Part shown: positions 3,801-49,209 of the stretch, in pieces
Position numbering within the stretch: the stretch's first letter is position 1
Layout: every line of letters begins with the position of its first letter
NCBI GenBank assembly: GCA_030536665.1
Contig: JAUNPO010000001.1
Location: 5,336-57,054, forward strand
DNA length: 51,719 nucleotides
Direction: 5' to 3'
DNA from: Pseudomonadota bacterium
Lineage (GTDB): Bacteria; Pseudomonadota; Alphaproteobacteria; RF32; CAG-239
The notes under the pieces: model-generated
The model's database searches: none
Seen by the model: only the letters and a program-made list of their open reading frames with translations
What the model was told of the DNA's origin: nothing
Translations under genes and position numbers: made by a program

Positions 3801-4378
3801 TGCTTAATCCTGTCAATCACATAAACCAGTTCCGCCCGCAGGACATTACATGGTTTATCCGTATCAATCACAACATCCGCCAGCATTTTCTTATATTTAT
3901 TATCCATTTGCACAATATTGATTTTTTCAAAATCTTCAGCGGAAACTTTGTCTCGTTCCATCACCCGCCGTTTCTGAATTTCATAATCAACATCGGCAAC
4001 GATAATATAATCGCAATACCTGTGCCACCCCATTTCAAAAAGCAAAGCCACATCCAAAAACAACAAAGCGTCAGTTCTGGCATTCTTAAGGATTAACTCG
4101 CGCAGCTTCATCTTCAAGAACGGGTGAATCAACCCCTCAAGCTTTTTTAACTCTTCATTGTTATCAAAAACAATCTGGCGCAGCTTTCTTTTGTTAACTC
4201 TTCCCGATTCCATAACCGACGGAAAATTCTCCCCGATTACCTTAATAAAAGCTTTTTTGTTATACAGTCTTCTGACCCAGCCGTCGACATCATAGACAGG
4301 ATAACCCAAAGATTTTACTTCTTTGGCCAAGGTCGTTTTTCCACATCCGATAGACCCGGTAATAGCTGCTAATTTCAT
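3794..4378 (-). CDS. coaE: Dephospho-CoA kinase
   Basis: MKLAAITGSIGCGKTT P-loop at the N-terminus. I prefer the ATG at 4378 to the ORF-track start at 4417, which would run into a DnaA box. Confidence 0.85.
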   Translation of the reverse strand: MKLAAITGSIGCGKTTLAKEVKSLGYPVYDVDGWVRRLYNKKAFIKVIGENFPSVMESGRVNKRKLRQIVFDNNEELKKLEGLIHPFLKMKLRELILKNARTDALLFLDVALLFEMGWHRYCDYIIVADVDYEIQKRRVMERDKVSAEDFEKINIVQMDNKYKKMLADVVIDTDKPCNVLRAELVYVIDRIKQC

Positions 4379-4409
4379 TATTTTTTCCTTTAAACAAAGG
4401 CTTACAGAG

Positions 4410-4418
4410 TTATGCACA
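4410..4418 (+). promoter_or_regulatory. DnaA box TTATGCACA
   Basis: Matches the consensus TTATNCACA. Confidence 0.5.
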
Positions 4419-4432
4419 AAACCTGTTGATTC

Positions 4433-4441
4433 TGTGTATAA
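4433..4441 (-). promoter_or_regulatory. DnaA box TTATACACA (minus strand)
   Basis: The plus strand reads TGTGTATAA, and its reverse complement matches TTATNCACA. Confidence 0.5.
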
Positions 4442-4600
4442 CTCAGTGCTTTCTAATATTTATACAAAGTAATCCTCATAATGTAAAATTTATTCTACAA
4501 TTTTACCCACAATCGGCTCTCAGATTCGTTTTTCAACCAAGAAATTTATTTAAATTTAATGTAAATAATTAACTTTACAAACTATGACTCGATAAAAACA

Positions 4601-4615
4601 TTAAGATTCTGTTAA
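4601..4615. promoter_or_regulatory. CtrA-type box TTAA-N7-TTAA with GATTC in the spacer
   Basis: The sequence is ttaaGATTCtgttaa. The motif is short and the context is AT-rich, so a chance match is possible. Confidence 0.35.
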
Positions 4616-4644
4616 CTTTTAAAAAGTCAGGGCTTTTCGATTCG

Positions 4645-4659
4645 TTAACAATTTATTAA
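4645..4659. promoter_or_regulatory. CtrA-type box TTAA-N7-TTAA
   Basis: The sequence is ttaacaatttattaa. The same caveat applies as for 4601-4615. Confidence 0.35.
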
Positions 4660-4686
4660 CAATACTTTTAAAAGCGCCCCAAAAAC

Positions 4687-4695
4687 TTATCCACA
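4687..4695 (+). promoter_or_regulatory. DnaA box TTATCCACA (perfect)
   Basis: Exact match to the canonical 9-mer. Confidence 0.6.
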
Positions 4696-4759
4696 TAATG
4701 CACAGGCATATACAAACCACTACATAAATTTTAAAAATAATTAGTTAGGGCTTTCGGCT

Positions 4760-4768
4760 TGTGCATAA
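4760..4768 (-). promoter_or_regulatory. DnaA box TTATGCACA (minus strand)
   Basis: The plus strand reads TGTGCATAA. Confidence 0.5.
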
Positions 4769-4887: not shown

Positions 4888-6141
4888 ATGCACTTACAAG
4901 AATTAAAGCAAAAATCTCCTAAAGAGTTGTTAACTCAGGCAGAAGAGCTTGGCATTGAAGACGCTTCTTCCATGCGTGTCCAGGATTTGATTTTTGCCAT
5001 CCTGAAAAAGGTTGCCTCTGACGACGAAATTATTTACGGTACCGGAACAATAGAAGTCCTCCCTGACGGATTTGGCTTCTTGCGGTCAATAGAATCAAAT
5101 TATTTAGCCAGCCCGGATGATATCTATGTTTCTCCGGCTCAGGTCAAAAAATTCGGCTTGCGGACAGGCGATACTGTCGAAGGCGAAATTCGCTCGCCCA
5201 AGGACAACGAACGTTATTTTGCGTTAACTAAAGTTAATAAAATCAATTATGAAGACCCTGAAAAATCAAAACTGCGCGTTAACTTTGACAATCTGACACC
5301 GCTATATCCGACAAAGAAATTAAATTTTGACATTATCTGCGGTGAAAAAGATTATACAACGCGCGTTATTGACCTGGTTGCGCCTCAGGGCAAAGGTCAG
5401 CGCGGTCTGATTGTGGCGCCGCCCCGCACCGGTAAAACAGTCATGCTGCAAAACATAGCGCACGCCATTGCCGAAAACCACCCGGAAGTTTACCTGATGG
5501 TTCTGCTTATTGACGAGCGCCCGGAAGAAGTGACGGATATGACCCGCTCTGTTAAAGGCGAAGTTATTTCATCCACGTTTGATGAACCGGCCAGCCGTCA
5601 TGTTCAGGTTGCCGAAATGGTTGTTGAAAAAGCCAAGCGCTTGGTTGAAACCAAAAAGGATGTTGTAATCCTGCTCGATTCCATTACCCGCCTTGGCCGC
5701 GCTTATAATGCGGTTATCCCCTCCTCCGGTAAGGTCTTAACCGGAGGTGTTGACGCCAATGCCCTGCAGCGTCCGAAACGTTTGCTTGGCGCTGCTCGCA
5801 ACGTTGAAGAAGGAGGTTCTTTGACAATCATTGCAACCGCGTTGGTTGATACCGGCTCCCGTATGGATGAAGTTATTTTTGAAGAATTCAAAGGAACCGG
5901 CAATTCTGAAATCATCCTTGACCGTAAATTGGTTGATAAACGCCTCTTCCCGACGATTGACATCACCCGGTCCGGAACGCGTAAGGAAGAGCTTCTTGTT
6001 GACCGCCAGACGCTTTCCAAGATGTGGGTTCTGCGCCGTGTATTAATGCAAATGGGTATGACTGACGGTATGGAATTTCTGCTTGATAAACTGAAAGTGT
6101 CAAAAGACAACAATGATTTCTTCAATAATATGAACAGTTAA
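4888..6141 (+). CDS. rho: Transcription termination factor Rho
   Basis: 417 aa with the Rho N-terminal and cold-shock-like domains, the P-loop APPRTGKT and the typical C-terminus. Confidence 0.95.
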
Positions 6142-6853: not shown

Positions 6854-7555
6854 TTAATTATTTTTGTCAAATGTTAATTTTATAAAATCATATAAATCTC
6901 GCATGTTATAAAAGATGTTTTCAATTCCGAGAGATTTTACTTTGTCTATATACGCCTGATTTTGATAAATTTCGCTGCCGAGAAAAGCGGCAACTTTCAT
7001 GCCCGCTCTCAGTCCGGCAGTCATTCCCGCGATAGAATCTTCAATAACCAGACACTGCTCCGGTTTTTCTTCCATCTGTTTAGCGGCGTAAAGGAATAAA
7101 TCCGGCTCGGGTTTTCCCCTTTCCACAAAGTCAACGGTAAAAACTTTTTCATCAGGTATATACTTGTTGAGGCCGATAATATCTGTTTTAAATTTTGTTT
7201 TGTATTTTGTGCCGCCGGTTGCAACACATTGCTTGAGCGTTTGGTCTTGAAGAATGTTGTCAACGCCGGACATTTTTTCGATTCCGAATTTTTTCATATA
7301 AGCGACGTCTGTTTCCAAAATTTCATTCCAGAATTTATCGTCAGTCTTAAAACCCAGTTTTTCTAAGACTTGTCTTTTGGTCTTGTCCGCCATTCCGCCG
7401 AAGTATTTGTTAACTGTATCAAAATCCCAGTTAACGCCGAGATGGTCGTTAAAATATGCCATTCGGTTTTTCAGCCAGATTTTTTCGGAATCAGCAATAA
7501 CCCCGTCAAAATCCCAGATAATTAGTTTTAATTTGTTATCCATGTTATTAATCAA
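6854..7555 (-). CDS. HAD-superfamily hydrolase (beta-phosphoglucomutase-like subfamily IA)
   Basis: HAD motif I is IWDFDGVIADSE. A later segment reads …CLVIEDSIAGMTAGLRAGMKV…. Confidence 0.75.
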   Translation of the reverse strand: MINNMDNKLKLIIWDFDGVIADSEKIWLKNRMAYFNDHLGVNWDFDTVNKYFGGMADKTKRQVLEKLGFKTDDKFWNEILETDVAYMKKFGIEKMSGVDNILQDQTLKQCVATGGTKYKTKFKTDIIGLNKYIPDEKVFTVDFVERGKPEPDLFLYAAKQMEEKPEQCLVIEDSIAGMTAGLRAGMKVAAFLGSEIYQNQAYIDKVKSLGIENIFYNMRDLYDFIKLTFDKNN

Positions 7556-7744
7556 TCTTTAGTTTAAAAATATCGAGTCCGTATAAAGCCCGTACAGAAG
7601 AATTTTGACGATTCTATGACATCTTGGTTAAAGAAACCTGAAAAAGCGCTGTAGAGTCCCTAAAAACGGGATTTTTAAAACTTGCATAAAAATTTGAATT
7701 TTAATATACCATTATTACAATATTTTTTTTATCAGGAAACCGCC

Positions 7745-9088
7745 ATGGACAATAAAACAATTTATGCCTTGTCAACCGTATTGGGAAAATCCGGCGTTGC
7801 CGTAATCCGTATTTCCGGAAAAGAGGCTTTGCAGGTTGTCCGGCTGATGACAAATCTTAATCCGGATAAAATAAAAGTGCGTTATGCCTATTTCACGGAT
7901 TTAAAAGATTTGAGCAAAAGCCATACTTTGGATAAATGCCTGTTGTTATATTTTAAGGCGCCTAATTCTTTTACCGGCGAGGATATTGTCGAATTGCAGA
8001 TACACGGTTCTCGCGCGGTGATTGCCAGTGTTCTGAACAATTTGAGCCGGATTCCCGAATTTCGCATGGCTGAGCCGGGAGAATTTTCCAAACGTGCCTT
8101 TTATAATCAAAAAATGGATTTGACGGAAGCGGAAGGTTTGGCTGATTTGATTGATGCTGAAACCGAAGCTCAGCAAAAATATGCTTTGCGCCAAATGGAA
8201 GGCAGCCTTAAAAATCTTTATGATGACTGGCGGACGCAGCTTGTAACAATTATGGCTCACCTTGAAGCTTATATCGATTTCCCTGATGAAGAAATTCCGG
8301 AATCCGTTGTCAATAACCTTAATAACACTGTATTTAAACTACGTGAAGCTATAAATAAACATTTGTCAGGCGATAATATCGGCGAACGTCTGCGTGAAGG
8401 GTTTCGCGTTGTCATTGTTGGCCGCCCTAATGCCGGGAAATCAAGTCTGTTGAATGCCTTTGCACAAAGGGATGTTGTTATTGTTTCCGATATAGCCGGC
8501 ACAACGCGCGACGCTGTTGATATTCATCTTGATTTGAACGGCTATCCGGTCATTATTACGGATACGGCCGGAATTCGCGAAACCGAAGAAGCTATAGAGA
8601 AACAGGGGGTTGAAATCGCATATCGCAAAATTAATGATGCTGATTTGCTTATTTGTTTGTTTGACGCTTCTCAAGACACTGTTCAGGTCTTTGATAATAT
8701 TGCGAAAACCTATGGTGATAAAATGGTTTATGTTGCCAATAAAGCCGATAATCTCACACCAGAACAATGTTCAAATATTGAAAAACAGAATATTCTTCTT
8801 ATTTCGGCCAAACACCATCAGGGAATAGATGTGCTTCTAGATAAAATTTCAAAGGTTATTGAAGACAAGTTTACGTCAAATTCTAATCTTTTGATAACGC
8901 GGGCACGCTATAGGGAGGCGCTTTCCCAAGCGTTGCAGTCACTTGACTTGTTTAATCTTGATAAGGAAATAGAGCTTTCTGCCGAAGATATCCGTCTGGC
9001 CGCTCGGGAAATAGGCAAAATTACCGGCCGTATTGAAATTGATGAAATCCTTGATAAAATTTTCGGCAGCTTCTGTATCGGTAAATAA
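7745..9088 (+). CDS. mnmE: tRNA modification GTPase MnmE
   Basis: The protein starts MDNKTIYALST…. G-domain motifs GRPNAGKSSLLN and DTAGIR are present, and the C-terminus is FCIGK. I prefer the ATG at 7745 over the ORF-track start at 7682. Confidence 0.9.
   Translation: MDNKTIYALSTVLGKSGVAVIRISGKEALQVVRLMTNLNPDKIKVRYAYFTDLKDLSKSHTLDKCLLLYFKAPNSFTGEDIVELQIHGSRAVIASVLNNLSRIPEFRMAEPGEFSKRAFYNQKMDLTEAEGLADLIDAETEAQQKYALRQMEGSLKNLYDDWRTQLVTIMAHLEAYIDFPDEEIPESVVNNLNNTVFKLREAINKHLSGDNIGERLREGFRVVIVGRPNAGKSSLLNAFAQRDVVIVSDIAGTTRDAVDIHLDLNGYPVIITDTAGIRETEEAIEKQGVEIAYRKINDADLLICLFDASQDTVQVFDNIAKTYGDKMVYVANKADNLTPEQCSNIEKQNILLISAKHHQGIDVLLDKISKVIEDKFTSNSNLLITRARYREALSQALQSLDLFNLDKEIELSAEDIRLAAREIGKITGRIEIDEILDKIFGSFCIGK
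8324..8338 (+). repeat. Polar motif copy 1: AACACTGTATTTAAA
   Basis: Inside mnmE. It reads ACT GTA TTT AAA (T V F K). Confidence 0.9.
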
Positions 9089-9101
9089 CACTGTATTTAA
9101 A
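9087..9101 (+). repeat. Polar motif copy 2: AACACTGTATTTAAA
   Basis: It starts inside the mnmE TAA stop codon (9086-9088). Confidence 0.9.
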
Positions 9102-9347
9102 GCCTGTTGTCGCAATTTTGTTGACTCGTCATCTGTTCTGCAGATTCAATGCGATTTTTATTTGAAAAAATTATTGAGAATGGATTGTTTCACGATTTAA
9201 TCTAATTTTAATAAAGAAGGAGCTCTGCTCTCTTTTTATTTTTGCCGATAAATAAAATGCAAAAAATAGCCTTTTCAAGCTATTACCCTCTTGTCAAAAA
9301 ATATAACCTGTTGTAAACCTTAGGCAATATAAAATTAAGGAATAAAA

Positions 9348-11201
9348 ATGAATAAAATACAGGAATTTGATGTTATTGTCGTTGGCGGCGGTCATGCCGG
9401 TTGTGAGGCTTGTGCCGCAGCCGCGCGCATGGGCGCCAAAACCGCACTGATTACTCATAAGATTTCTACCATAGGCGAAATGTCCTGCAATCCGGCTATT
9501 GGCGGTCTTGGCAAAGGCCACCTGGTTCGAGAAATTGACGCGCTGGACGGATTAATGGGGCGTGTTATTGATAAAGCCGGTATTCAGTTCCGCATGCTTA
9601 ATGCTTCCAAAGGACCTGCTGTCCGCGGTCCCAGAGCGCAGGCTGACCGTGATTTGTATAAAAAATTCATGCTTGAAGCTTTGCAGAAGCAGGAAAATTT
9701 GACAATTATCGAAGCTCCGGTCGAAGGGTTATATTTCACAGGTGATAAACTCAGCGGTGTTAAATTGGCCGATGAGAGTATCGTTAAATCAAAAGCCGTT
9801 ATTTTAACATCAGGCACTTTTTTGAATGGCGTTATGTTTACCGGCCATCAAGCAACGGTTGGCGGTCGTGTCGATGATGTTTCATGCGCCGGTATAACAC
9901 CGTATTTAAACGCTTGTGGTTTGAAAGTCGGTCGCTTAAAAACCGGAACCCCTGCCCGTCTAGATATAAAGACAATTAATTGGGATATGCTTCCCAAGCA
10001 GGATGGTGATGAAAATCCTGTTCCCTTTTCTTTTCTGACAAAAGAGATTTCTCAGCCGCAAATTCAATGTGCAATTACGCGCACCAACGAAAGAACTCAC
10101 CAAATTATTCGTGATAACTTTGAAAAATGCGCCCTCTTTTCTGGATTGATAAAAGGAATTGGCCCCCGCTATTGTCCCAGTATTGAAGATAAACTTGTCA
10201 AGTTTCCTGACCGTGACAGTCACCAGATTTTTTTGGAACCGGAAGGATACAAAACAAATGTTGTTTATCCCAACGGCATATCGACATCTCTGCCGGCGGA
10301 TGTGCAGGAGCAATTTATTCATACCATGGAAGGACTGGAAAATGTCAAAATTCTCCGTTATGCTTACGCGATTGAATATGACTTTGTCGATCCTCAGGAA
10401 TTAAATCGCAGATTGGAAGTCAAAAAAGTTCCGGGACTGTTTTTAGCCGGACAAATTAACGGAACAACCGGCTACGAAGAAGCTGCCGCTCAGGGAGTCA
10501 TCGCCGGTATTAATGCGGCCTTGAGTGCAAAAAATCCCGGAGAAGAGTTTACCGTTGACCGCAGCGAGGCCTATATCGGCGTTATGATTGACGACCTTAT
10601 AACAAAAGGCGTTGATGAACCATATCGTATGTTTACGTCCCGTTCTGAATATCGTTTGTTGCTGCGTGCCGATAATGCCGATTTGCGTTTGACGGAAAAG
10701 GGCTGGCAAGCTGGTTGTGTTAGTAAAGACAGATACACTGTATTTAAACAAAAACAGGAAAATATTAAGACTTGCCGGGAGTTATGCGAAACTTTGATAA
10801 CCAAAACGCCAGAACTTGAAAAATATGGTATTAAGGTTAAGCAGGATGGCACGCGCAGAACTGCATATAATATAATGTCTTATGATAATGTTTCACGTGA
10901 AACAATCAACGCCATTTGGCCGGAATTGATATCTATACCGGACGATACTTATGAACAGTTGGAAATTGAAGCCAGATATGCCGGATATATCAAACGTCAG
11001 GAAGCAGATATTGATGTTTTTAAAAAGGATGAAAAACTAAAAATACGCGAAGACATTGATTATTCACAGGTCGGTGGCTTATCGCGCGAAATGGTTCAAA
11101 AACTGACTAAAGTAAAACCGGCAACAATTGGCGAAGCCTCTCGTATTCCCGGTGTTACGCCGGCTGCGATTATGGCTGTTTTGGGGTATTTGAAAAAATA
11201 A
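9348..11201 (+). CDS. mnmG: tRNA uridine 5-carboxymethylaminomethyl modification enzyme MnmG
   Basis: FAD-binding motif [11 protein letters not shown]. The full-length 617 aa has a typical GidA sequence. Confidence 0.95.
9896..9910 (+). repeat. Polar motif copy 3: AACACCGTATTTAAA
   Basis: Inside mnmE's neighbour mnmG. It reads ACA CCG TAT TTA AAC (T P Y L N). Confidence 0.85.
10734..10748 (+). repeat. Polar motif copy 4: TACACTGTATTTAAA
   Basis: Inside mnmG. It reads ACT GTA TTT AAA (T V F K), a different frame from copy 3. Confidence 0.85.
10889..10904. promoter_or_regulatory. parS: parS centromere site TGTTTCACGTGAAACA (perfect palindrome) inside mnmG
   Basis: Exact 16-bp consensus ParB-binding palindrome. 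It encodes NVSRET. Confidence 0.85.
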
Positions 11202-11202
11202 T

Positions 11203-11217
11203 AACGCTGTATTTAAA
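11203..11217 (+). repeat. Polar motif copy 5: AACGCTGTATTTAAA
   Basis: It overlaps the second of the tandem TAA TAA stops of mnmG and ends 1 nt before the HD1 ATG. Confidence 0.85.
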
Positions 11218-11218
11218 C

Positions 11219-11845
11219 ATGAAAAAATATCCAAACATCAGAAATGCCGAAAAAATCTGGAAAGAAGGAATTGCGTACCGTCTGGCAAACTATCCCTTTC
11301 CTGAAAAGGATGAGTATATCTTTCACTCGCGTGGTGTCGGACGTTGCTGCCGCATTATTGCAGAACATACCCAAGACTTGAATCCCGAAAAAGCATATGT
11401 TCTCGGTTTGCTGCATGACTGCGGTAAACGGGTTAATGAGCGTTTATCAGGACGCTTCCACGTCCGGGAAGGCTATGATTTAATGGAAGCCATGGATTAT
11501 ACGGATGTTGCCAGAGTTTGCCTGACTCATAGTTTTTATTCTCCCGACTTTGATGAAAAGTTCTATCCGTCTTATCGTCCCGAATGGTTGGCATGGGCGA
11601 AAGATAAAATGCGCGGCATTACTTTTAACGATTATGATCGTCTTGTCCAGCTCTGCGATTTGTTCTTTGAAGGATTGGAAAAAGTTTGCTTGAAAAAACG
11701 TTTTGAAGGATTAATCAGACGCTATAATCTCCAATGGCCACTATTGCAAAGTTTGTATCAACATGCTCTGGATAATAAAAAGTTTTTTGATGAAAAATGC
11801 GGCTGCTGCATTTATGATTTGCTGGAAATAAAAAATGAAGATTAA
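11219..11845 (+). CDS. HD-domain phosphohydrolase (YqeK-like), paralog 1
   Basis: The H…HD metal motif is FHSRGV…LGLLHDCGK. It aligns along its whole length with the next gene. Confidence 0.7.
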   Translation: MKKYPNIRNAEKIWKEGIAYRLANYPFPEKDEYIFHSRGVGRCCRIIAEHTQDLNPEKAYVLGLLHDCGKRVNERLSGRFHVREGYDLMEAMDYTDVARVCLTHSFYSPDFDEKFYPSYRPEWLAWAKDKMRGITFNDYDRLVQLCDLFFEGLEKVCLKKRFEGLIRRYNLQWPLLQSLYQHALDNKKFFDEKCGCCIYDLLEIKNED

Positions 11846-11858
11846 CACTGTATTTAAA
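11844..11858 (+). repeat. Polar motif copy 6: AACACTGTATTTAAA
   Basis: It starts inside the HD1 TAA stop, 9 nt before the HD2 ATG. Confidence 0.9.
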
Positions 11859-11867
11859 GGATGAAAC

Positions 11868-12488
11868 ATGAGCTTTCCCTCCCGCCAAGAAGCTGAACGG
11901 CTTTTAGAAAAAGTAATTGAAATCAGAAATGCCACATTATATCCTTTTACGGATAAAATGGAGATAACTTTCCGCGCACATAGTCGGACTGTTGCTAAAA
12001 TAGCAGAAATACTGGCTAAAAAAACAGCGTATTTAAACATTGATAAAGCTTATGTCTGTGGGTTGTTGCATGATTGCGGTCGTATGCTGGATGAATGGAA
12101 TGAGCGCGTCTTTCATGGTCTGGTCGGATATCAGTATATGATGTCTTTGGGCTATGACGATGTCGCTAAAATTTGCCTGACACATAATTTTTATTCAGAA
12201 AATTTTCAAGATGAGGATTATCTGCAATTTGCCGAATTTATTCCTGAATGCCGCAGTATAATGAAAAACTTTTATTATGATGAATATGATAAGCTGATTG
12301 CCCTGTCCGATATGTTGAATGATATGGGAAAAACCTGCTCTTTGGAATATCGGCTGAACAGCATTTCTACACGTTATAAAACAGAGCCTGAGCAGTTAGA
12401 ACGTCTTAAAAAAGATTTGTATAATCTCAAATCTTTTTTTGATGAAAAATGCCATAATGACGTTTATAAAATTTTAGCGATTAAATGA
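11868..12488 (+). CDS. HD-domain phosphohydrolase (YqeK-like), paralog 2
   Basis: Motif RAHSRTVAKIAEILA…CGLLHDCGR. The C-terminus FFDEKC…Y.IL.IK is shared with paralog 1. Confidence 0.7.
   Translation: MSFPSRQEAERLLEKVIEIRNATLYPFTDKMEITFRAHSRTVAKIAEILAKKTAYLNIDKAYVCGLLHDCGRMLDEWNERVFHGLVGYQYMMSLGYDDVAKICLTHNFYSENFQDEDYLQFAEFIPECRSIMKNFYYDEYDKLIALSDMLNDMGKTCSLEYRLNSISTRYKTEPEQLERLKKDLYNLKSFFDEKCHNDVYKILAIK
12023..12037 (+). repeat. Polar motif copy 7: AACAGCGTATTTAAA
   Basis: Inside HD2. It reads T A Y L N. Confidence 0.8.
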
Positions 12489-12514
12489 TACAATCCTCCG
12501 CATAAGGAGGATTT

Positions 12515-13345
12515 ATGCAGCATTTTTCATATCATACTCATACCAATACTTTTGGTGTTTACGACGGTCATTATTCAATAGAAGAAATGATTAAAGCCGC
12601 CGAACAAGCCGGATACACCGAGCTTGGCATTTCTAATCATTTTATATATCACCCCAACATTTTTAAGGGATGTCAAGCCTCAGCAAACGATAAAATGTTT
12701 CATAGCGATTATGCCGAAGCGCTGGACATTTATAAAAGAACCATTGATGAAATCCGACGCATTGCAGCAAAAAGTAAGATTAAGGTCTATGCCGGTTTTG
12801 AAGTGGATTTTTTTCCGTCTTCTCAATGGCGGGATGTCTTTGAGAAAATGATTGCTGAAATCAAACCTGATTATCTAATAGGTTCAACCCATTACCTGCG
12901 AACCGCAGACGAAACTATGATGTGCAATATGTACTACCTATCGCAAACTGACATGACACATCAACAGGCGGAAGAATTACTGATAAATTACTGGCAAAAT
13001 ATAATTGAAGCCATAAAAAGCGGCTATTTTGCCTTTATAGCCCACCTTGATGTTTGTAAACTTTTTAATCTTGGCGTTGATCCGGTCTGGGATGAATGGA
13101 AGCGAAAGGTGATAAATGCTCTCAGTGAATATAATCATCCTTTCGAACTAAACACCAGCGGCTGGACGAAGGTTGGTGAGCAACATCCGCATCTCTGGAT
13201 GTTGGAAGAACTCGCCCAAAGACAAGTACCTGTTGTTATAAGTGATGACGCCCATAAGATTGAACATATTGCCCAACATTTTGAACAGGCAGAGAATCTG
13301 CTTAAAAGTATAAACTACACAAATCGCTGGAAACTGAATAAATAA
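12515..13345 (+). CDS. PHP-family phosphoesterase (HisJ/HisK histidinol-phosphatase-like), paralog 1
   Basis: N-terminal YHTHTNTFGVYDG and a later ISDDAHK. It is a tandem paralog of the next gene. Confidence 0.7.
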   Translation: MQHFSYHTHTNTFGVYDGHYSIEEMIKAAEQAGYTELGISNHFIYHPNIFKGCQASANDKMFHSDYAEALDIYKRTIDEIRRIAAKSKIKVYAGFEVDFFPSSQWRDVFEKMIAEIKPDYLIGSTHYLRTADETMMCNMYYLSQTDMTHQQAEELLINYWQNIIEAIKSGYFAFIAHLDVCKLFNLGVDPVWDEWKRKVINALSEYNHPFELNTSGWTKVGEQHPHLWMLEELAQRQVPVVISDDAHKIEHIAQHFEQAENLLKSINYTNRWKLNK

Positions 13346-14166
13346 TGCAAAATTATACCTATCATAGTCACACAAACAGTTTAGGAATTTTTGACGGTGC
13401 CGATTCTGCCGATAAAATGATAAGCCGCGCAGAAGAGCTTGGATTCTGTGAAATAGGTATCTCCAATCATCTTATTTGTCATCCGGGGCTTTGTGAAATT
13501 GATAAAATGCAGGCAATGTATTTTCGCGACTATCAACAGGCTGAGAATATTTATAAAAAGGCCGTTGATGATATACGCGAGGCTGCCGCAAAGCATAAAA
13601 TAAAAGTTTATGTCGGTTTTGAAGTTGATTATTTTAACGATAAAAATTGGCTGAATTTTTTTGAACAAATTAGAAAATCTCTGGATGTCGATTACTATAT
13701 CGGTGCCAGCCATTTTATCTATAACAATGATTTCTCTAAAATTCTTAAAATATCTTATCTTAAAAAACGTCCCGACCTTTTGGATGACGAAATCTTGTCT
13801 TCAGGTTTAACAAACCATTGGCGTAATCTTATTGCGGCAATAAAAAGCGGCTGGTTTACCTTTATGGCGCATATTGACCAGATAACGGCAAAAGGTTTCT
13901 GTACCGATACAACGTGGGATGAATTGAAGTGGCAGATTATCGAAGCCTTTGCATCATCCAAAACCGGCTGTGAACTGAGTACAAAAGGCCTGCGCCAAAC
14001 AAAAGACTTTTTTCCGGCAGCCTGGATAGTTAAAGAATTAAACAAACGTAATGTGCCTTTGATAATAAGTGATGATGCGCATTCCGCGTCACAGTTGGGA
14101 GAGAACTTTGATAAAGCAGAAACTTTCTTGACTGAAATTAATTATAAAAATCGTATAAAATTTTAA
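13345..14166 (+). CDS. PHP-family phosphoesterase (HisJ/HisK-like), paralog 2
   Basis: N-terminal YHSHTNSLGIFDG and a later ISDDAHS. Its start overlaps the stop of paralog 1 (TAATG). Confidence 0.7.
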   Translation: MQNYTYHSHTNSLGIFDGADSADKMISRAEELGFCEIGISNHLICHPGLCEIDKMQAMYFRDYQQAENIYKKAVDDIREAAAKHKIKVYVGFEVDYFNDKNWLNFFEQIRKSLDVDYYIGASHFIYNNDFSKILKISYLKKRPDLLDDEILSSGLTNHWRNLIAAIKSGWFTFMAHIDQITAKGFCTDTTWDELKWQIIEAFASSKTGCELSTKGLRQTKDFFPAAWIVKELNKRNVPLIISDDAHSASQLGENFDKAETFLTEINYKNRIKF

Positions 14167-14293
14167 TGTTTTGAGTCTAAAAACATTGTTTAACCTGTTG
14201 ATTTAAAATATTTTATTTGTTCTTGCTTTTTATGTGTTTATAACTCGATTAAATGTGTTTTAAATTCCTTTGAAAATTTATATAAATAATCTT

Positions 14294-14917
14294 ATGGAAA
14301 ATTTAATCGAAAAATATAATGTTTCACGTGAAACATTTTCAAAATTGAAAACTTATGAAGCCTCTCTGAAAGAGTGGCAGGAAAAGTTTAACCTGGTTAG
14401 CAAGGCTTCTCTGGATGATGCTTGGAATCGTCATTTTGTTGATTCCTTGCAGTTGCTTCCGCTCATTCCGGAAAAAGCTAAAGTGATGTATGATTTTGGC
14501 TCTGGAGCTGGCTTTCCGGGCTTAGTACTGGCAACGGTTTTAAAGGAAAAAACACCGTATTTAAAAATAAAACTGATTGAGAGTATTAAAAAGAAAACAC
14601 TGTATTTAAACGCGGTTGCTGAAATGCTTAAGCTGGACAATGTTGAAATCCTCAATGACCGTATTGAAAACATCAAAAAAGTTCCGGCTGATGTTATAAC
14701 ATCGCGTGCCATGTGCAACTTAAATGATTTGCTGCGTTATGCTTCCGGTTTTTGCAGCAAAAACACAAAATGCATTTTCCCCAAAGGAAAAAAATATGCG
14801 GAAGAAATTTCGGAAGCGCAAAAAAATTGGAACTTCAATTACAAACTGGTTCAAAGCGTATCCAGCGACGAAGGAATGATAATCGTGATAACAGACTTGT
14901 CAGGAAAAAGGAGATAA
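14294..14917 (+). CDS. rsmG: 16S rRNA (guanine527-N7)-methyltransferase RsmG
   Basis: N-terminal MENLIEKYNVSRET… and the SAM motif DFGSGAGFPGL. The ATG at 14294 gives a typical length; the ORF-track start at 14270 is a TTG. Confidence 0.9.
   Translation: MENLIEKYNVSRETFSKLKTYEASLKEWQEKFNLVSKASLDDAWNRHFVDSLQLLPLIPEKAKVMYDFGSGAGFPGLVLATVLKEKTPYLKIKLIESIKKKTLYLNAVAEMLKLDNVEILNDRIENIKKVPADVITSRAMCNLNDLLRYASGFCSKNTKCIFPKGKKYAEEISEAQKNWNFNYKLVQSVSSDEGMIIVITDLSGKRR
14320..14335. promoter_or_regulatory. parS: parS centromere site TGTTTCACGTGAAACA (perfect palindrome) inside rsmG
   Basis: Exact 16-bp consensus, again encoding NVSRET. Confidence 0.85.
14551..14565 (+). repeat. Polar motif copy 8: AACACCGTATTTAAA
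   Basis: Inside rsmG. It reads T P Y L K. Confidence 0.85.
14596..14610 (+). repeat. Polar motif copy 9: AACACTGTATTTAAA
   Basis: Inside rsmG, 45 nt after copy 8. It reads T L Y L N. Confidence 0.9.
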
Positions 14918-14920
14918 TTG

Positions 14921-15700
14921 ATGCCGAGAATAATAGCCATTGCCAATCGTAAAGGCGGGGTCGGAAAAACAACGACAACGGTTAACGTTGCCACAGCCAT
15001 GGCGGCCACGGGAAAAAAAGTTTTGGTTATTGATTTGGATCCGCAGGGAAATGCCACAACGTCAATGGGAATAAATAAAAAAGGGCGTATGGCTTCTTCC
15101 TATGAAGTTTTGCTTGGCGAAAGGACTTTGTCCGAAGCGGTTGTCTGGACCGAAATTCCTAATTTTTCTATCGTGCCGTCATCTGCCGATTTGGCCGGAG
15201 CTGAGGTTGAGCTGGTTGATATGCCAAACCGTGAATTTGCCTTGAAGAAGGCTATTGTCCAAAGCGCCGTCAATTACGACTATGTTCTGATTGATTGTCC
15301 GCCATCTTTGAGTCTGGTAACAATCAATGCTTTGGTGGCTGCTAATGCCGTCATTGTACCCCTGCAATGCGAATTTTTGGCTCTTGAGGGCATCACCGAT
15401 TTGATTCGCAACATTAATATCATTAAAAAGAAATTTAATCCGGGGTTGGAACTTCAGGGCGTTGTCCTGACAATGTATGACAAACGCAACAATCTCAGCC
15501 AAATGGTTGAAGACGACGTCAGAAACTTCTTCGGAAAAAAAGTTTATCAAACCGTTATTCCGAGAAATGTCCGAATTTCCGAAGCGCCTTCGCACGGCAA
15601 ACCTGTCTTGCTTTATGATTTTAAATGCTCCGGTTCTCAGGCCTACATCAGCTTGACCGGTGAAGTCTTGAAAAGAGAAAAGGAATTGATTGCATGTTAG
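14921..15700 (+). CDS. parA: Chromosome partitioning ATPase ParA
   Basis: Deviant Walker A motif NRKGGVGKTTT. The ATG at 14921 lies 7 nt after an AAGGAG Shine-Dalgarno sequence. Confidence 0.93.
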   Translation: MPRIIAIANRKGGVGKTTTTVNVATAMAATGKKVLVIDLDPQGNATTSMGINKKGRMASSYEVLLGERTLSEAVVWTEIPNFSIVPSSADLAGAEVELVDMPNREFALKKAIVQSAVNYDYVLIDCPPSLSLVTINALVAANAVIVPLQCEFLALEGITDLIRNINIIKKKFNPGLELQGVVLTMYDKRNNLSQMVEDDVRNFFGKKVYQTVIPRNVRISEAPSHGKPVLLYDFKCSGSQAYISLTGEVLKREKELIAC

Positions 15701-16713
15701 AAGATAAAATAAATGAATTGGATAAGCTCGCCGAAGGCGAAAATCACGCCAACGCCAAAAGAAAAAGCTTGGGCCGCGGTCTGGGAGCGCTTCTTGGTGA
15801 CGACGACTTGGATTTAAATGACTTCCCCGGCGAAGAAAAAAAGTCTTCTGACAAACCGGCTGATTTGGTAAATATCAATTTGATAAAGGCCAGCCCGTTT
15901 CAGCCGCGTACGGAGTTTGACGAAGAAGCGCTGCGTGCTTTGGCCGATTCGGTCAAGGAAAAAGGCGTCTTGCAGCCTTTGCTTGTCCGTAAAGTCGGCA
16001 ATGATTATGAATTGATTGCCGGAGAAAGGCGTCTGCGCGCTTCCAAATTGGCCGGTCTGTCTGAAGTTCCGGTTATTGTCCGGGAAATGACCGATCAGGA
16101 AGTTCTGGAAGTCGCTCTGGTTGAAAATCTGTTGCGTGAAAATCTGTCTGCAATAGAAGAAGCGGAAGGCTTGCAGCGTTTAATCGACGAATTTTCTCAC
16201 ACGCAGGAAGCCTTGTCCAAAATTATCGGCAAATCTCGCAGCCATATTGCTAATACGCTGCGTCTGCTGACCCTGCCGGAAAGCGTTCAAAATCTGGTTA
16301 AGGAAGGCAAATTGTCTGCCGGTCAGGCGCGCAACCTCGTCGGTTTGGAAAATGCGGAAGATTTGGCGCAGCTGATTATCAAAAAAGATTTGAATGTCCG
16401 CCAGGTTGAAGAACTGGTGAATAAGCTTAAGAACGCCAAACCGCAGAAAAAAGAACCGGAGGAAATCAGTCAGGATTTGGTTGATATCGAAAAATCCCTG
16501 AACAAATCCCTGGGGCTGCGAATTAAAATCAGCCAGGGAAAACAGGGAAGCGGAAAAGTTGTTTTGCAATATTCTTCTGTTGCCGAGCTGGATATGATAA
16601 TAGACTTGCTAGAACAAAAACGCCGCAATGCCCGTCCCATGATGGTGCCTGCGCCGTCAGCAGGTGGCGGAGAGAAGCCGCAGGAAAAATTTACGATGAA
16701 AGTAATTGATTAA
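15694..16713 (+). CDS. parB: Chromosome partitioning protein ParB
   Basis: ParB box LIAGERRLRASKLAG and an HTH region. The gene overlaps the parA stop. Confidence 0.93.
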   Translation: MLEDKINELDKLAEGENHANAKRKSLGRGLGALLGDDDLDLNDFPGEEKKSSDKPADLVNINLIKASPFQPRTEFDEEALRALADSVKEKGVLQPLLVRKVGNDYELIAGERRLRASKLAGLSEVPVIVREMTDQEVLEVALVENLLRENLSAIEEAEGLQRLIDEFSHTQEALSKIIGKSRSHIANTLRLLTLPESVQNLVKEGKLSAGQARNLVGLENAEDLAQLIIKKDLNVRQVEELVNKLKNAKPQKKEPEEISQDLVDIEKSLNKSLGLRIKISQGKQGSGKVVLQYSSVAELDMIIDLLEQKRRNARPMMVPAPSAGGGEKPQEKFTMKVID

Positions 16714-19667: not shown

Positions 19668-20651
19668 ATGTTTTTTCTGAAAAAAGTTATATTGGGAATA
19701 GCCGCTTTTGTTTTTATCCTGTGGGGCGGCGCCGGAACTCAGAGCAATAACCTTCTGCTTCAGGGCGGCGGCTTCATCGGTCTGATTGTCGGTCTGATTA
19801 TTTTATATATATTTACCAAAATGGCTTGGCGGGCGATGGGCTGCCTGCCGTCTTTTCTTATCTTCAGCGGCATTGTCTGCTTTGTTGTTTATGCCATCGG
19901 CGGTTTCAGCAACGGTTTTACCAATGTCGGCCGGAATATAAGGACTTTTATGGGGCAGAATTCCGCCCCGAAACCGTCAGCGGAAACAAACGGTGCGCTT
20001 CTTCTGGTTGAGAAAGAAGATGTTGTTTCCGAAAATTTTGCCGATGGAGAAAATATCGTCGAAGAAACGGAATTTATTGAAGAAGAACCGGCTGAAAGCG
20101 GTCCGATACGCAAATGGTTTAATTCGGTAACCGGTCAAGGCAATGAAGCCGCCGCCCCGCTTAATCCCAACAATTTTCCGGCAATTTACGGCAGCGCCAA
20201 AGTGATAAACGGCGATACGTTGAAAATCAACGGCTATTATTTCAGGCTCTATGGCATAGACGCGCCGGAAAGCAATCAGACTTGTGCCGGGGCTCAGGGA
20301 CGGTCTTATCGTTGCGGTGTCGAGGCCGGAAACTGGTTGCGCAGCTGGATACAGGATAATATTTTGGAATGTCACGTTATGCAACAGGATGAAAACGGCA
20401 ATATGGTCGGAACCTGTTCGCTGGGGCAGTATGATTTAGGGGCGGCAATCGTTAACGCCGGCTGGGCTGTCGCTTATTTGAAATATACCGACATTTATTA
20501 TCCTTATGAGGAAAATGCCCGCGCTGCCCGCGCCGGTCTGTGGCAGGGACGTTTTTATATGCCTTGGGATTGGCGGGTGATGCAGGCGCAAAAACCAAAA
20601 ATTAAAATAATAAAACCAAAAGTTCGTAAAAAGAGTTTGTTAGATGGATGA
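19668..20651 (+). CDS. Membrane-anchored staphylococcal-nuclease (SNase/thermonuclease)-like protein
   Basis: N-terminal TM helices and an acidic linker, followed by an SNase-like domain (VINGDTLKINGYYFRLYGIDAPES…AGLWQG). Confidence 0.7.
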   Translation: MFFLKKVILGIAAFVFILWGGAGTQSNNLLLQGGGFIGLIVGLIILYIFTKMAWRAMGCLPSFLIFSGIVCFVVYAIGGFSNGFTNVGRNIRTFMGQNSAPKPSAETNGALLLVEKEDVVSENFADGENIVEETEFIEEEPAESGPIRKWFNSVTGQGNEAAAPLNPNNFPAIYGSAKVINGDTLKINGYYFRLYGIDAPESNQTCAGAQGRSYRCGVEAGNWLRSWIQDNILECHVMQQDENGNMVGTCSLGQYDLGAAIVNAGWAVAYLKYTDIYYPYEENARAARAGLWQGRFYMPWDWRVMQAQKPKIKIIKPKVRKKSLLDG

Positions 20652-30065: not shown

Positions 30066-30158
30066 AAAAGGCGGAGGAACACTGACCTTAATCGGTTCGT
30101 TACGGCTGCTTTCTTCCGAACCTGACCGGGTTGGCGAAAGATTAACCCAATGCCCTCC
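30066..30158 (-). ncRNA. ffs: Signal recognition particle RNA (4.5S, small type)
   Basis: The minus strand reads GGAGGGCAUUGGGUUAAUCUUUCGCCAACCCGGUCAGGUUCGGAAGAAAGCAGCCGUAACGAACCGAUUAAGGUCAGUGUUCCUCC. It contains the conserved GGUCAGGU.CGGAAG.AAGCAGCC domain IV core, and the 5' and 3' ends pair. It sits in the classical position upstream of dnaX. The ends are approximate. Confidence 0.8.
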
Positions 30159-30164
30159 ATTGAC

Positions 30165-47986: not shown

Positions 47987-48913
47987 ATGCAGACAACTAA
48001 AGCGCCGCGCAATAAAACCATAGAATTGACCCCAAAAGAAGTAAGTCATTATGCTCGCAAGGCCATAAGACTTAATTTCAAGGCCTCGTTGGACTATGTC
48101 TTAGATAAGACAATACATCAGGATGTTTTCAAAACATTGGATTACCTGCCTGATGAAAGCGTTGATTTAGTTATTGTTGACCCGCCGTATAACCTGACAA
48201 AAATCTTTGGAAACAGTGTATTTAAAGAGCGCGATTTCAGCGAATATAAAAAATGGCTGGATAAATGGCTGAAAAAGCTTCCCCGTATCATGAAGGAAAA
48301 TGCCAGTATCTATATTTGCGCGGATTGGAAAACCTCTATCTCCATTCCTGAGATTGCCGGCAAATATTTTATCTTGCAAAACCGGATATCCTGGGAAAGG
48401 GAGAAAGGCCGGGGAGCAAAAGACAACTGGAAAAACTGTCTGGAAGATATCTGGTTTTTTACAAAATCAAAAGAATATACGTTTAACCTTGACGCGGTTA
48501 AAGTTTTGCGTCCGGTTCGGGCGCCATACCGGGATGACAGCGGCGCGCCGAAAGACTGGCAGGATAGCGGAGATAAGCGTCATCGCCTGACTTATCCGTC
48601 AAATATCTGGACCGATATCTCCATTCCGTTTTGGTCAATGCCGGAAAACACCTCCCACCCGACTCAAAAACCGGAAAAACTTCTGGCCAAGCTTATTTTG
48701 GCTTCCAGCAATAAGAATGATGTCGTGTTGGATCCGTTTCTGGGGTCGGGAACAACGTCTGTTGTTGCCAAAAAACTGCAGCGTCATTATATCGGTATTG
48801 AACGTGAAAAAGAATATGTCGCTCTGGCTGAACGCCGCTTGGAACTGGCTGATGAAAATACTGAAATTCAGGGGTTTGAAAACGGTGTATTTAAATCCAG
48901 AAATTATGAATAA
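47987..48913 (+). CDS. Beta-class DNA methyltransferase (DPPY; N6-adenine or N4-cytosine), orphan
   Basis: Motif IV (VIVDPPYN) precedes motif I (LDPFLGSGTT), and IGIEREKEY is present. No restriction gene is adjacent. Confidence 0.8.
   Translation: MQTTKAPRNKTIELTPKEVSHYARKAIRLNFKASLDYVLDKTIHQDVFKTLDYLPDESVDLVIVDPPYNLTKIFGNSVFKERDFSEYKKWLDKWLKKLPRIMKENASIYICADWKTSISIPEIAGKYFILQNRISWEREKGRGAKDNWKNCLEDIWFFTKSKEYTFNLDAVKVLRPVRAPYRDDSGAPKDWQDSGDKRHRLTYPSNIWTDISIPFWSMPENTSHPTQKPEKLLAKLILASSNKNDVVLDPFLGSGTTSVVAKKLQRHYIGIEREKEYVALAERRLELADENTEIQGFENGVFKSRNYE
48212..48226 (+). repeat. Polar motif copy 10: AACAGTGTATTTAAA
   Basis: Inside the methyltransferase gene. It reads S V F K. Confidence 0.8.
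48881..48895 (+). repeat. Polar motif copy 11: AACGGTGTATTTAAA
   Basis: Inside the methyltransferase gene. It reads G V F K. Confidence 0.8.
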
Positions 48914-48927
48914 ACACTGTATTTAAA
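48913..48927 (+). repeat. Polar motif copy 12: AACACTGTATTTAAA
   Basis: It starts at the last base of the methyltransferase TAA stop. Confidence 0.9.
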
Positions 48928-49056: not shown

Positions 49057-49170
49057 ATGAGTAACAATGAAAAAAATACGTCTTCAAAAACAAATTCAAA
49101 TACATCTAAAAACAGCAGTTCTTCCACTTCTAACACCGGCAAAAAAGGCTGTGGCTGCGGCGGTAAATAA
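49057..49170 (+). CDS. Small ORF (37 aa): MSNNEKNTSSKTNSNTSKNSSSSTSNTGKKGCGCGGK
   Basis: It is not in the ORF track because it is too short. An AAGGAG sequence lies 7 nt upstream of the ATG, and a strong terminator lies 40 nt downstream. Confidence 0.45.
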   Translation: MSNNEKNTSSKTNSNTSKNSSSSTSNTGKKGCGCGGK

Positions 49171-49209
49171 AAACTGAATTTTAGCAGTTATTTCATAGTG
49201 TCACTTGTT

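Follow-up and report, generated by a model that had tools for sequence, protein, structure and literature searches.

A co-oriented DNA word interleaved with parS sites beside the probable replication origin of uncultured gut Alphaproteobacteria

What could be the function of a DNA word that is repeated beside a probable replication origin, always in the same orientation, inside genes as well as between them? This question is raised by a 51,719-nt stretch of an alphaproteobacterial genome (contig JAUNPO010000001.1 of assembly GCA_030536665.1, positions 5,336 to 57,054; hereafter the window), in which the word AC-N3-GTATTTAAA recurs across mnmE, mnmG, rsmG and the HD genes that lie between them. 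The original prediction, made from the letters of the window alone, had singled out this word and proposed four explanations: an array of sites for an origin-proximal binding protein, an RNA-level signal, a DNA uptake sequence, or scars left by insertion of the HD genes. We find that the word is real, strongly selected and apparently undescribed. Indeed, a literature search on the 9-mer GTATTTAAA retrieved no relevant publication and no description of it, in line with the earlier statement that no such motif was known. The first of the four explanations fits best, and we estimate at roughly one in two the probability that the copies are sites for an asymmetrically binding protein, which would cooperate with the ParB/parS partition complex beside oriC or act in its surroundings.

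In the whole window, AC-N3-GTATTTAAA matches twelve times on the plus strand (starts at 8325, 9088, 9897, 10735, 11204, 11845, 12024, 14552, 14597, 48213, 48882 and 48914) and never on the minus strand, which reproduces the coordinates and counts of the original prediction exactly. Dinucleotide shuffles of the window yielded 0.06 matches on average and 1 at most. The bare 9-mer GTATTTAAA, also found 12 times on the plus strand and 0 times on the minus strand, is the commonest 9-mer of the window. Allowing up to three mismatches added just five weak matches, thus the word is sharply defined. A logo computed from 274 instances in the loci of related species (see below) reads A-W-A-A-C-R-S-Y-GTATTTAAA over about 17 nt. 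It is non-palindromic and consists of an invariant 9-bp core, AAC on the 5' side with three loosely constrained bases in between, and a short A-rich flank. Information content is at background from positions -9 and +9; because it drops right outside the word, the unit is about 17 nt long and no part of a longer repeat.

Nine copies are clustered in the region that contains mnmE (7682-9088), mnmG (9348-11201) and rsmG (14270-14917). Copy 1 (8322..8338, plus strand like all others) is inside mnmE, where it is read as NNTVFK, and has an orthologous site at mnmE +585 to +650 in about 40 species; copy 2 (9085..9101) overlaps the TAA stop of the same gene. Two copies lie within mnmG: copy 3 (9894..9910), at +545, reads ATA ACA CCG TAT TTA AA and is synonymously invariant in 42 species, and copy 4 (10732..10748), at +1385, reads TAC NNT GTA TTT AAA and is kept in most species. 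Copy 5 (11201..11217) makes up all of the DNA that separates the mnmG stop (TAA TAA in tandem) from the start codon of HD1 (11219-11845). Copy 6 (11842..11858) shares bases with the HD1 stop codon (TAA) and is closely followed by the ribosome-binding site of HD2, and copy 7 (12021..12037) is inside HD2. Copies 8 (14549..14565) and 9 (14594..14610) form a conserved pair, 45 nt apart, at rsmG +266 and +311. Two perfect parS sites are interleaved with these copies, one in mnmG (TGTTTCACGTGAAACA, 10889..10904) and one in rsmG (14320..14335), and both are conserved clade-wide at orthologous positions. From 14.6 to 48.2 kb the window is free of the word, and the three remaining copies are satellites in and at the end of a DNA methyltransferase gene. 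Several earlier observations were therefore accurate as described, namely the interleaving with parS, which moreover holds throughout the clade, the long gap, the bracketing of HD1 by copies 5 and 6, the start of copies 2, 5 and 6 within the stops of mnmE, mnmG and HD1, and the use of two different reading frames.

HD1 itself lacks a recognisable Shine-Dalgarno sequence, the 17-nt word taking up the whole of its upstream spacer (11201-11221); its translation would therefore be initiated by coupling or by another mode.

To what extent is the array shared with other bacteria? We compared 48 loci from species-representative genomes, retrieved with the MnmG protein. Of these, 43 belong to uncultured gut or rumen Alphaproteobacteria (MnmG identity 69-96%, GC content 32-49%) and five to unrelated outgroups with about 45% MnmG identity. 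The word was present in every ingroup locus and in no outgroup locus. Counting the window array, the AC-prefixed word occurs 271 times on the plus strand and 0 times on the minus strand in 42 species, and loci longer than 19 kb contain 5-13 copies (median 6.5). A position weight matrix scan of about 800 kb of clade loci gave a similar picture: 276 plus-strand matches with an intact core, no intact minus-strand match, and seven plus-strand variants with one mismatch, all at decayed orthologous sites. Within every cluster the copies are direct repeats, a rule to which we found no exception.

Most positions are orthologous between species. Besides the sites in mnmE (+585 to +650), mnmG (+545 and +1385) and rsmG (+266 and +311), recurrent copies are found 8 nt past the mnmE stop, 8-12 nt past that of mnmG and at parB +930 to +960, with a further site at mnmG +425 in one subgroup. 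Lineage-specific copies occur in HD and PHP genes, and intergenic spacers contain tandem runs of two to four copies. No array begins upstream of the middle of mnmE (+585), and each ends at parB or a few hundred bases beyond, spanning whatever genes intervene, whether these are HD genes, PHP genes or the sequences on either side of a HAD gene inserted on the minus strand. In every case the array encloses the conserved parS sites, two or three per locus: those in mnmG and rsmG are at orthologous positions clade-wide (e.g. L015 3828, L019 6243, L028 7728 and L042 1180), and some species have a third one, with one mismatch, in mnmE. Spacing between copies is not phased; it has a median of 838 nt and ranges from short intervals of 21-80 nt (21, 22, 23, 25, 28, 30-33, 42, 45) up to kilobases. 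Word density reaches about 0.9 per kb in the array as compared to about 0.02 per kb in the flanks, a concentration of about 45-fold in a 7-kb region.

According to the original prediction, it is the nucleotide word and not the encoded protein that is under selection, and the comparison strongly bears this out. When synonymous codons were shuffled in ten genes of the window with the proteins kept, 0.53 copies were expected in coding sequence, whereas 8 are observed. Of 286 classified copies, 52 are intergenic, and the two sense frames that stay open account for 112 and 116; in the remaining frame the word reads TAA and can stand only at a gene end. At the first mnmG site, the codons ATA ACA CCG TAT TTA AA are found in all ingroup species, the sole change being CCG to GCG in three of them, and the Gly, Ser and Cys codons beside the site vary freely. 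Moreover, the peptide at this site is GITPYLK/N in the clade and GLSDSLR in the outgroups; hence the protein sequence of MnmG has been altered to hold the word. In an alignment of 43 mnmG sequences, 361 columns carry a conserved amino acid with degenerate codons, and the most frequent codon reaches a mean fraction of 0.586 there; consecutive invariant codons occur only at the two word sites and at parS, whose invariant synonymous codons are GTT TCA CGT GAA. Consistently, the sole 11-mers common to nearly all species in the clade loci are pieces of parS and pieces of the word. Nucleotide-level selection on the word thus has the same evolutionary signature as that on parS, a proven protein-binding DNA site in mnmG. 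The sole other conserved word of the region, TCAAAATCCCA (7419 and 7506), is located inside the HAD gene, so it is probably conserved coding sequence.

Because HD1 lies exactly between copies 5 and 6 in the window, the copies could have been recombination or insertion scars, or mobile-element ends, that bracket the HD and PHP genes. This reading is refuted, since the same sites are present in species that have neither HD nor PHP genes (L027, L029, L030 and L036), most copies occupy orthologous codons of conserved genes, and conservation stops at the ends of the 17 nt. An assembly artefact is excluded too, the array being found in more than 40 independent assemblies.

If the word is selected as nucleic acid, it could be recognised in RNA or in DNA. 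A co-transcriptional or RNA-level signal would be recognised either on the non-template strand, by RNA polymerase itself or by one of its accessory factors, or on the mRNA, by an RNA-binding protein or nuclease. It might act in pausing, termination or antitermination, or in the processing, stability or localisation of the mnmE-mnmG-rsmG-parAB transcripts. All 228 of the 228 intragenic copies of the core array are indeed in the sense strand, 19 of the 52 copies between genes are adjacent to the stop codon of the preceding gene, tandem copies gather at gene 3' ends and convergent junctions, and the satellites in the methyltransferase gene and in polA (see below) are sense as well. Among the relatives, however, at least five copies are antisense to real minus-strand genes or overlap their stop codons. 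In two relatives (L027 and L029), a plus-strand copy is inside the minus-strand cca gene (PolyA_pol), read as LNTL, and another is on the cca stop codon. In a third one (L031), a plus-strand copy is inside a minus-strand open reading frame (ORF), read as LNTP, and another is on the stop of a minus-strand cation-efflux gene. Copies thus stay on the plus strand where the local gene is on the minus strand, which speaks for a binding site in DNA. A perfect copy also lies 8 nt past an intrinsic terminator in L030, and L029 has a copy past a terminator too. Furthermore, a metagenome scan revealed intergenic satellites of two types (L313 and L314) that are antisense to every neighbouring gene; they were assigned to the clade, as probable members, by a tetranucleotide correlation of 0.93-0.95 with the window and by Tim44, MltA and Smr proteins of 45-50% identity. 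The copies share no secondary structure (z-scores -2.4 to +2.1), Rfam has no match anywhere in the array, and the word matches none of the known ops, boxA and rut consensus sequences. There is, moreover, no obvious RNA rationale for the co-extension with parS. All together, the peripheral antisense copies and the lack of a shared fold or Rfam match in the array favour recognition as DNA, and we consider an RNA-level signal unlikely, although it is the alternative to which we give most weight.

The strict polarity of the word calls for an explanation of its own, and the position of the origin is relevant here. A probable oriC is present outside the array, at 4337..4768, where the AT-rich region between coaE (minus strand) and rho (plus strand, 4888-6141) contains six DnaA-box-like 9-mers, one of which, TTATCCACA at 4687, is perfect. 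Given this cluster, oriC is probably about 3.5 kb to the left of the first word copy. The sign of the GC skew changes near 8 kb, about 3 kb to the right of the DnaA-box cluster, and an equivalent combination of cluster and skew switch is found at 5789-6287 in the relative L030. The array is on the G-rich (leading) side of the switch in every species, and is therefore co-oriented with the forks that leave oriC. Exceptions exist outside the array. The sole copy to the left of oriC (L030 2217) is not flipped, and follows the direction of the local plus-strand genes rather than that of replication, as an RNA-level signal would. The L313- and L314-type satellites, in turn, are on the C-rich strand. 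It follows that neither the direction of replication nor local transcription explains all copies.

One may then ask whether the word is a polar signal for a machine that tracks along DNA, as a barrier, loader or unloader: for the replisome (Ter-like), for SMC complexes loaded at parS (CTCF-like) or for a translocase (KOPS-like). Besides binding as such, the side from which the machine arrives would then matter. At the Tus-Ter and RTP-Ter replication terminators and in the Sal-box arrays of TTF-I/Reb1 downstream of rDNA, the sites are asymmetric, measure about 17-23 bp around an invariant core and come in several co-oriented copies, orientation being the property that matters for function. The word resembles such polar barriers in having an asymmetric site of about 17 bp, an invariant core and several copies in one orientation. 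The complete strand bias, which extends to newly arisen lineage-specific copies, and the location of the array between oriC and the right chromosome arm, on the leading strand everywhere and straddling the SMC-loading parS sites, would also suit a tracking machine. However, Ter sites form two opposed groups at the terminus, whereas the array is beside oriC, is oriented so that origin-derived forks meet it first, and has no opposed group within 10 kb; in particular, the 10 kb to the left of oriC contain no minus-strand array that would mirror it. The unflipped copy of L030 and the satellites on the C-rich strand further argue against such a machine, and no Tus- or RTP-like gene was seen, although no genome-wide search for one was made. 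KOPS, SRS and Chi are over-represented words of 5-8 nt that are spread chromosome-wide, polar on the leading strand and flipped at the origin; the word is too long (about 17 nt) and too clustered (about 45-fold in one region), and does not flip in L030. A signal for a tracking machine thus seems doubtful to us.

The same counts bear on the proposal that the word is an uptake sequence (DUS/USS-like) accumulated by biased uptake in natural transformation. Known DUS/USS occur about equally in both orientations and at a high, even density (about one per kb), core maintenance genes included, and they turn over rapidly. A short over-represented word that is tolerated in two frames and in non-coding DNA, with some copies next to terminators (L030 and L314) and others in polA and a DNA methyltransferase gene, recalls such elements. 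The strand bias is, however, total, density is about 0.02 per kb outside the single 7-kb array, with 0 copies in 34 kb of the window, and the sites are fixed at orthologous positions over very divergent species, with no turnover. The 10 kb to the left of oriC that were counted in this density test also contain 0 copies (L030 2217 being the exception mentioned above). Moreover, a 21-kb stretch of a relative that contains rpsT, dnaA, dnaN, recF, the methyltransferase gene and gyrB is free of the word. Because of this absence from the dnaA-dnaN-recF-gyrB stretch, the word is no general mark of genome-maintenance genes. An uptake function is rejected as very improbable.

The satellites themselves have a restricted distribution. 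In the window, they are associated with the gene of an orphan, beta-class N6-adenine DNA methyltransferase (N6_N4 type, 47987-48913), which is YhdJ/CcrM-like and scores below both NCBIfam cut-offs. Copy 10 (48210..48226) is inside the gene, read as GNSVFK, copy 11 (48879..48895) is at its 3' end, read as ENGVFK, and copy 12 (48911..48927) overlaps its stop codon. The enzyme is 73-88% identical within the clade, more conserved than MnmE or RsmG, and its gene is always preceded by EIIA(Man)- and HPr-like genes; no restriction enzyme gene was recognised among the flanking genes. The word-forming VFK version of its two xFK peptides is found in the nearest relatives only, copy 10 included. In a relative with 87% identity in this enzyme, four plus-strand copies are found there and none in the other 15 kb; the relative with the word-free 21 kb described above has 76% identity. 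A second group of satellites was detected in polA on a probable clade contig, as three co-oriented sense copies read as ENxVFK each time (L282 4375-4451; L248 2280-2356); in DNA polymerase I, they fall in the linker that joins the 5'-3' exonuclease domain to the 3'-5' exonuclease domain.

Wider scans added little to this distribution. In viral sequences, the 15-mer gave only single chance matches, on both strands, among the matches listed, and each of the 64 matches to the paired pattern was a local tandem repeat or came from an unrelated phage family; neither a phage array nor a plasmid-like array of the word turned up in these scans. The paired pattern had at least 120 matches in metagenomes; among the matches listed, about a third were known rsmG/mnmE pairs of the clade, and most others were chance or unrelated repeats. 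One metagenome locus (L290, 9974-10255) has seven 41-nt tandem units, each made of (A)TAACACTGTATTTAAAC or a variant and a short hairpin; three units match the alphaproteobacterial consensus perfectly, and the 41-nt repeat holds a perfect ATAACACTGTATTTAAA. Its gene content (smc, ftsY, Cof hydrolases, Sir2) is what we take to be Firmicute-like, and its tetranucleotide correlation with the clade is 0.3-0.5. This locus is probably unrelated, and we regard it as a coincidence of the search pattern.

We therefore return to the binding-site array, and ask what known systems it resembles. The most immediate comparison is with parS and ParB: both parS and the word are short words clustered within a few kb beside oriC, inside mnmE, mnmG and rsmG, at orthologous positions and with synonymous invariance. 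They differ in that a ParB dimer binds parS as a palindrome of 16 bp (close to TGTTNCACGTGAAACA), whereas the word has no palindromic symmetry, is strictly co-oriented, is unrelated in sequence and is three to five times more numerous. Canonical parS sites are present separately, and identity with parS is ruled out. The closest published parallel that we found is the ricS-RicO system of Staphylococcus aureus, in which about nine origin-proximal sites of 18 bp, described as neither repeat nor palindrome, are bound by a dedicated protein, RicO, that positions the origin region, and alongside which RacA-ram of Bacillus subtilis is cited (bioRxiv 10.64898/2026.03.06.710092). The word array matches the origin-proximal location of such ricS- or ram-type anchoring sites. 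The differences are that ricS sites extend over about 700 kb, as compared to 7 kb for the word array, and are unrelated in sequence and host phylum, and that the passages of the preprint on ricS mention no uniform orientation, embedding in coding sequences or interleaving with parS. In summary, the anatomy of the word recalls polar barriers such as Ter and the Sal box, and its location recalls the sites of origin-region organisers.

Other known elements were compared and rejected. Iterons, which are regularly spaced tandem direct repeats in non-coding DNA beside a rep gene, do not fit the irregular spacing, the location of 228 of the 286 copies inside ORFs, or the presence of a DnaA-box origin elsewhere. 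The ops element of RfaH (GGCGGTAGNNTG) and the boxA element of Nus (GCTCTTTAACAA) have one or two copies in an operon leader; the word has a different sequence and 6-13 copies, mostly inside genes. A repetitive extragenic palindromic element, a miniature inverted-repeat transposable element, an insertion sequence end or another mobile repeat would have a unit that exceeds the core word, usually with a hairpin or terminal inverted repeats; it is ruled out by background information beyond -9/+9 and by the lack of a common fold. Avoidance of TTTAAA as a restriction site is also ruled out, since this hexamer is observed 57 times in the window as compared to 28 expected. Finally, none of the known consensus sequences of the DnaA box, CtrA (TTAA-N7-TTAA), alphaproteobacterial LexA, IHF, NrdR, the Pho box, the dif/XerD arm, T7-type promoters, PUF/PPR sites or the -1 frameshift heptamer UUUAAAC fits the word; for CtrA-type sites, the invariant GTAT of the word falls where the consensus is degenerate.

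How could a binding-site array work? We propose that the word is the double-stranded DNA site of a putative sequence-specific protein that binds asymmetrically. The 6-13 co-oriented sites, distributed over coding and intercistronic DNA from mid-mnmE to parB among two or three parS sites, would together form a large nucleoprotein array in the zone of the ParB/parS partition complex, about 3.5 kb to one side of oriC. Such an array could be an accessory centromere or origin-region element, with a role in anchoring, in compaction or in the control of passage through the partition complex, and hence in segregation or in the organisation of the origin region. Polarity might then result from head-to-tail assembly, since all clusters are direct repeats, or from the need for each bound protein to show the same face to oriC-derived replication forks and to transcription of the operon.

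Several points weigh against this proposal. The antisense copies are few, lineage-specific and peripheral, and the clade membership of L313, L314 and L282 is assigned from tetranucleotide similarity and weak protein identity only. All ancient, deeply conserved copies are in the sense strand of one co-directional string of genes; the core pattern would thus look no different if the word were a signal read during transcription or in the mRNA. Besides, binding alone does not explain the polarity, as arrays of parS, ram and NBS need no uniform orientation, and no gene near the array is an obvious candidate for the binding protein. A more specific possibility would take polarity itself as the function: the co-oriented array may be a directional chromosome element at the centromere, in which asymmetrically bound proteins flanking parS act, in an orientation-dependent manner, on whatever passes through the partition complex or sets out from it. 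They may form a CTCF-like one-sided barrier or loader for SMC or ParB clamps, or a strand-specific mark that makes newly replicated sister centromeres non-equivalent. We know of no described case of a sequence-encoded polarity of a bacterial centromere region, and this idea is a decidedly speculative one.

The gene neighbourhood of the array varies between species. To the left, a minus-strand HAD hydrolase gene (6854-7555) separates rho from mnmE in the window. Between mnmG and rsmG, paralogous tandem pairs of genes are inserted (11219-14166), namely two HD genes (HDOD-like; together 11219-12488) and two PHP genes (HisJ-family phosphatase-like; 12515-14166); their number and order differ between relatives, four of which lack them. 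To the right of rsmG are parA and parB (14918-16713). In most clade members, parB is directly followed by the gene of a protein with a staphylococcal-nuclease (SNase) domain (327 aa; 19668-20651 in the window) and then by tsaE; in the window, three glycosyltransferase-type genes are inserted between parB and the SNase gene. Further away, the bacterial small signal recognition particle RNA (30067-30161, minus strand) is the sole Rfam match in the window. Near the methyltransferase gene, a good ribosome-binding site precedes a small ORF (49058-49171), whose 37-aa product is rich in Ser, Asn and Thr and ends in GKKGCGCGGK; a terminator-like hairpin follows the ORF on its 3' side, and the product could be a small secreted or modified peptide.

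Known pairs of a site and its protein at bacterial origins and centromeres are few (parS-ParB, ram-RacA and ricS-RicO), and the word looks like the site of another one. It is unusual in three respects: it is conserved as strongly as parS across a whole, abundant lineage of uncultured gut Alphaproteobacteria, it has reshaped the housekeeping proteins MnmE, MnmG, RsmG and ParB, and it is strictly polar. The 17-mer could be used as bait for the binding protein, and GTCTTTAAG is proposed as the control counterpart of GTATTTAAA with a mutated core. Being invariant, the word is also a sharp genomic marker, by which the clade can be recognised and the origin-centromere region located in metagenome bins. 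Should its polarity prove functional, the array would allow direct tests of how direction may be encoded in the organisation of a bacterial centromere.

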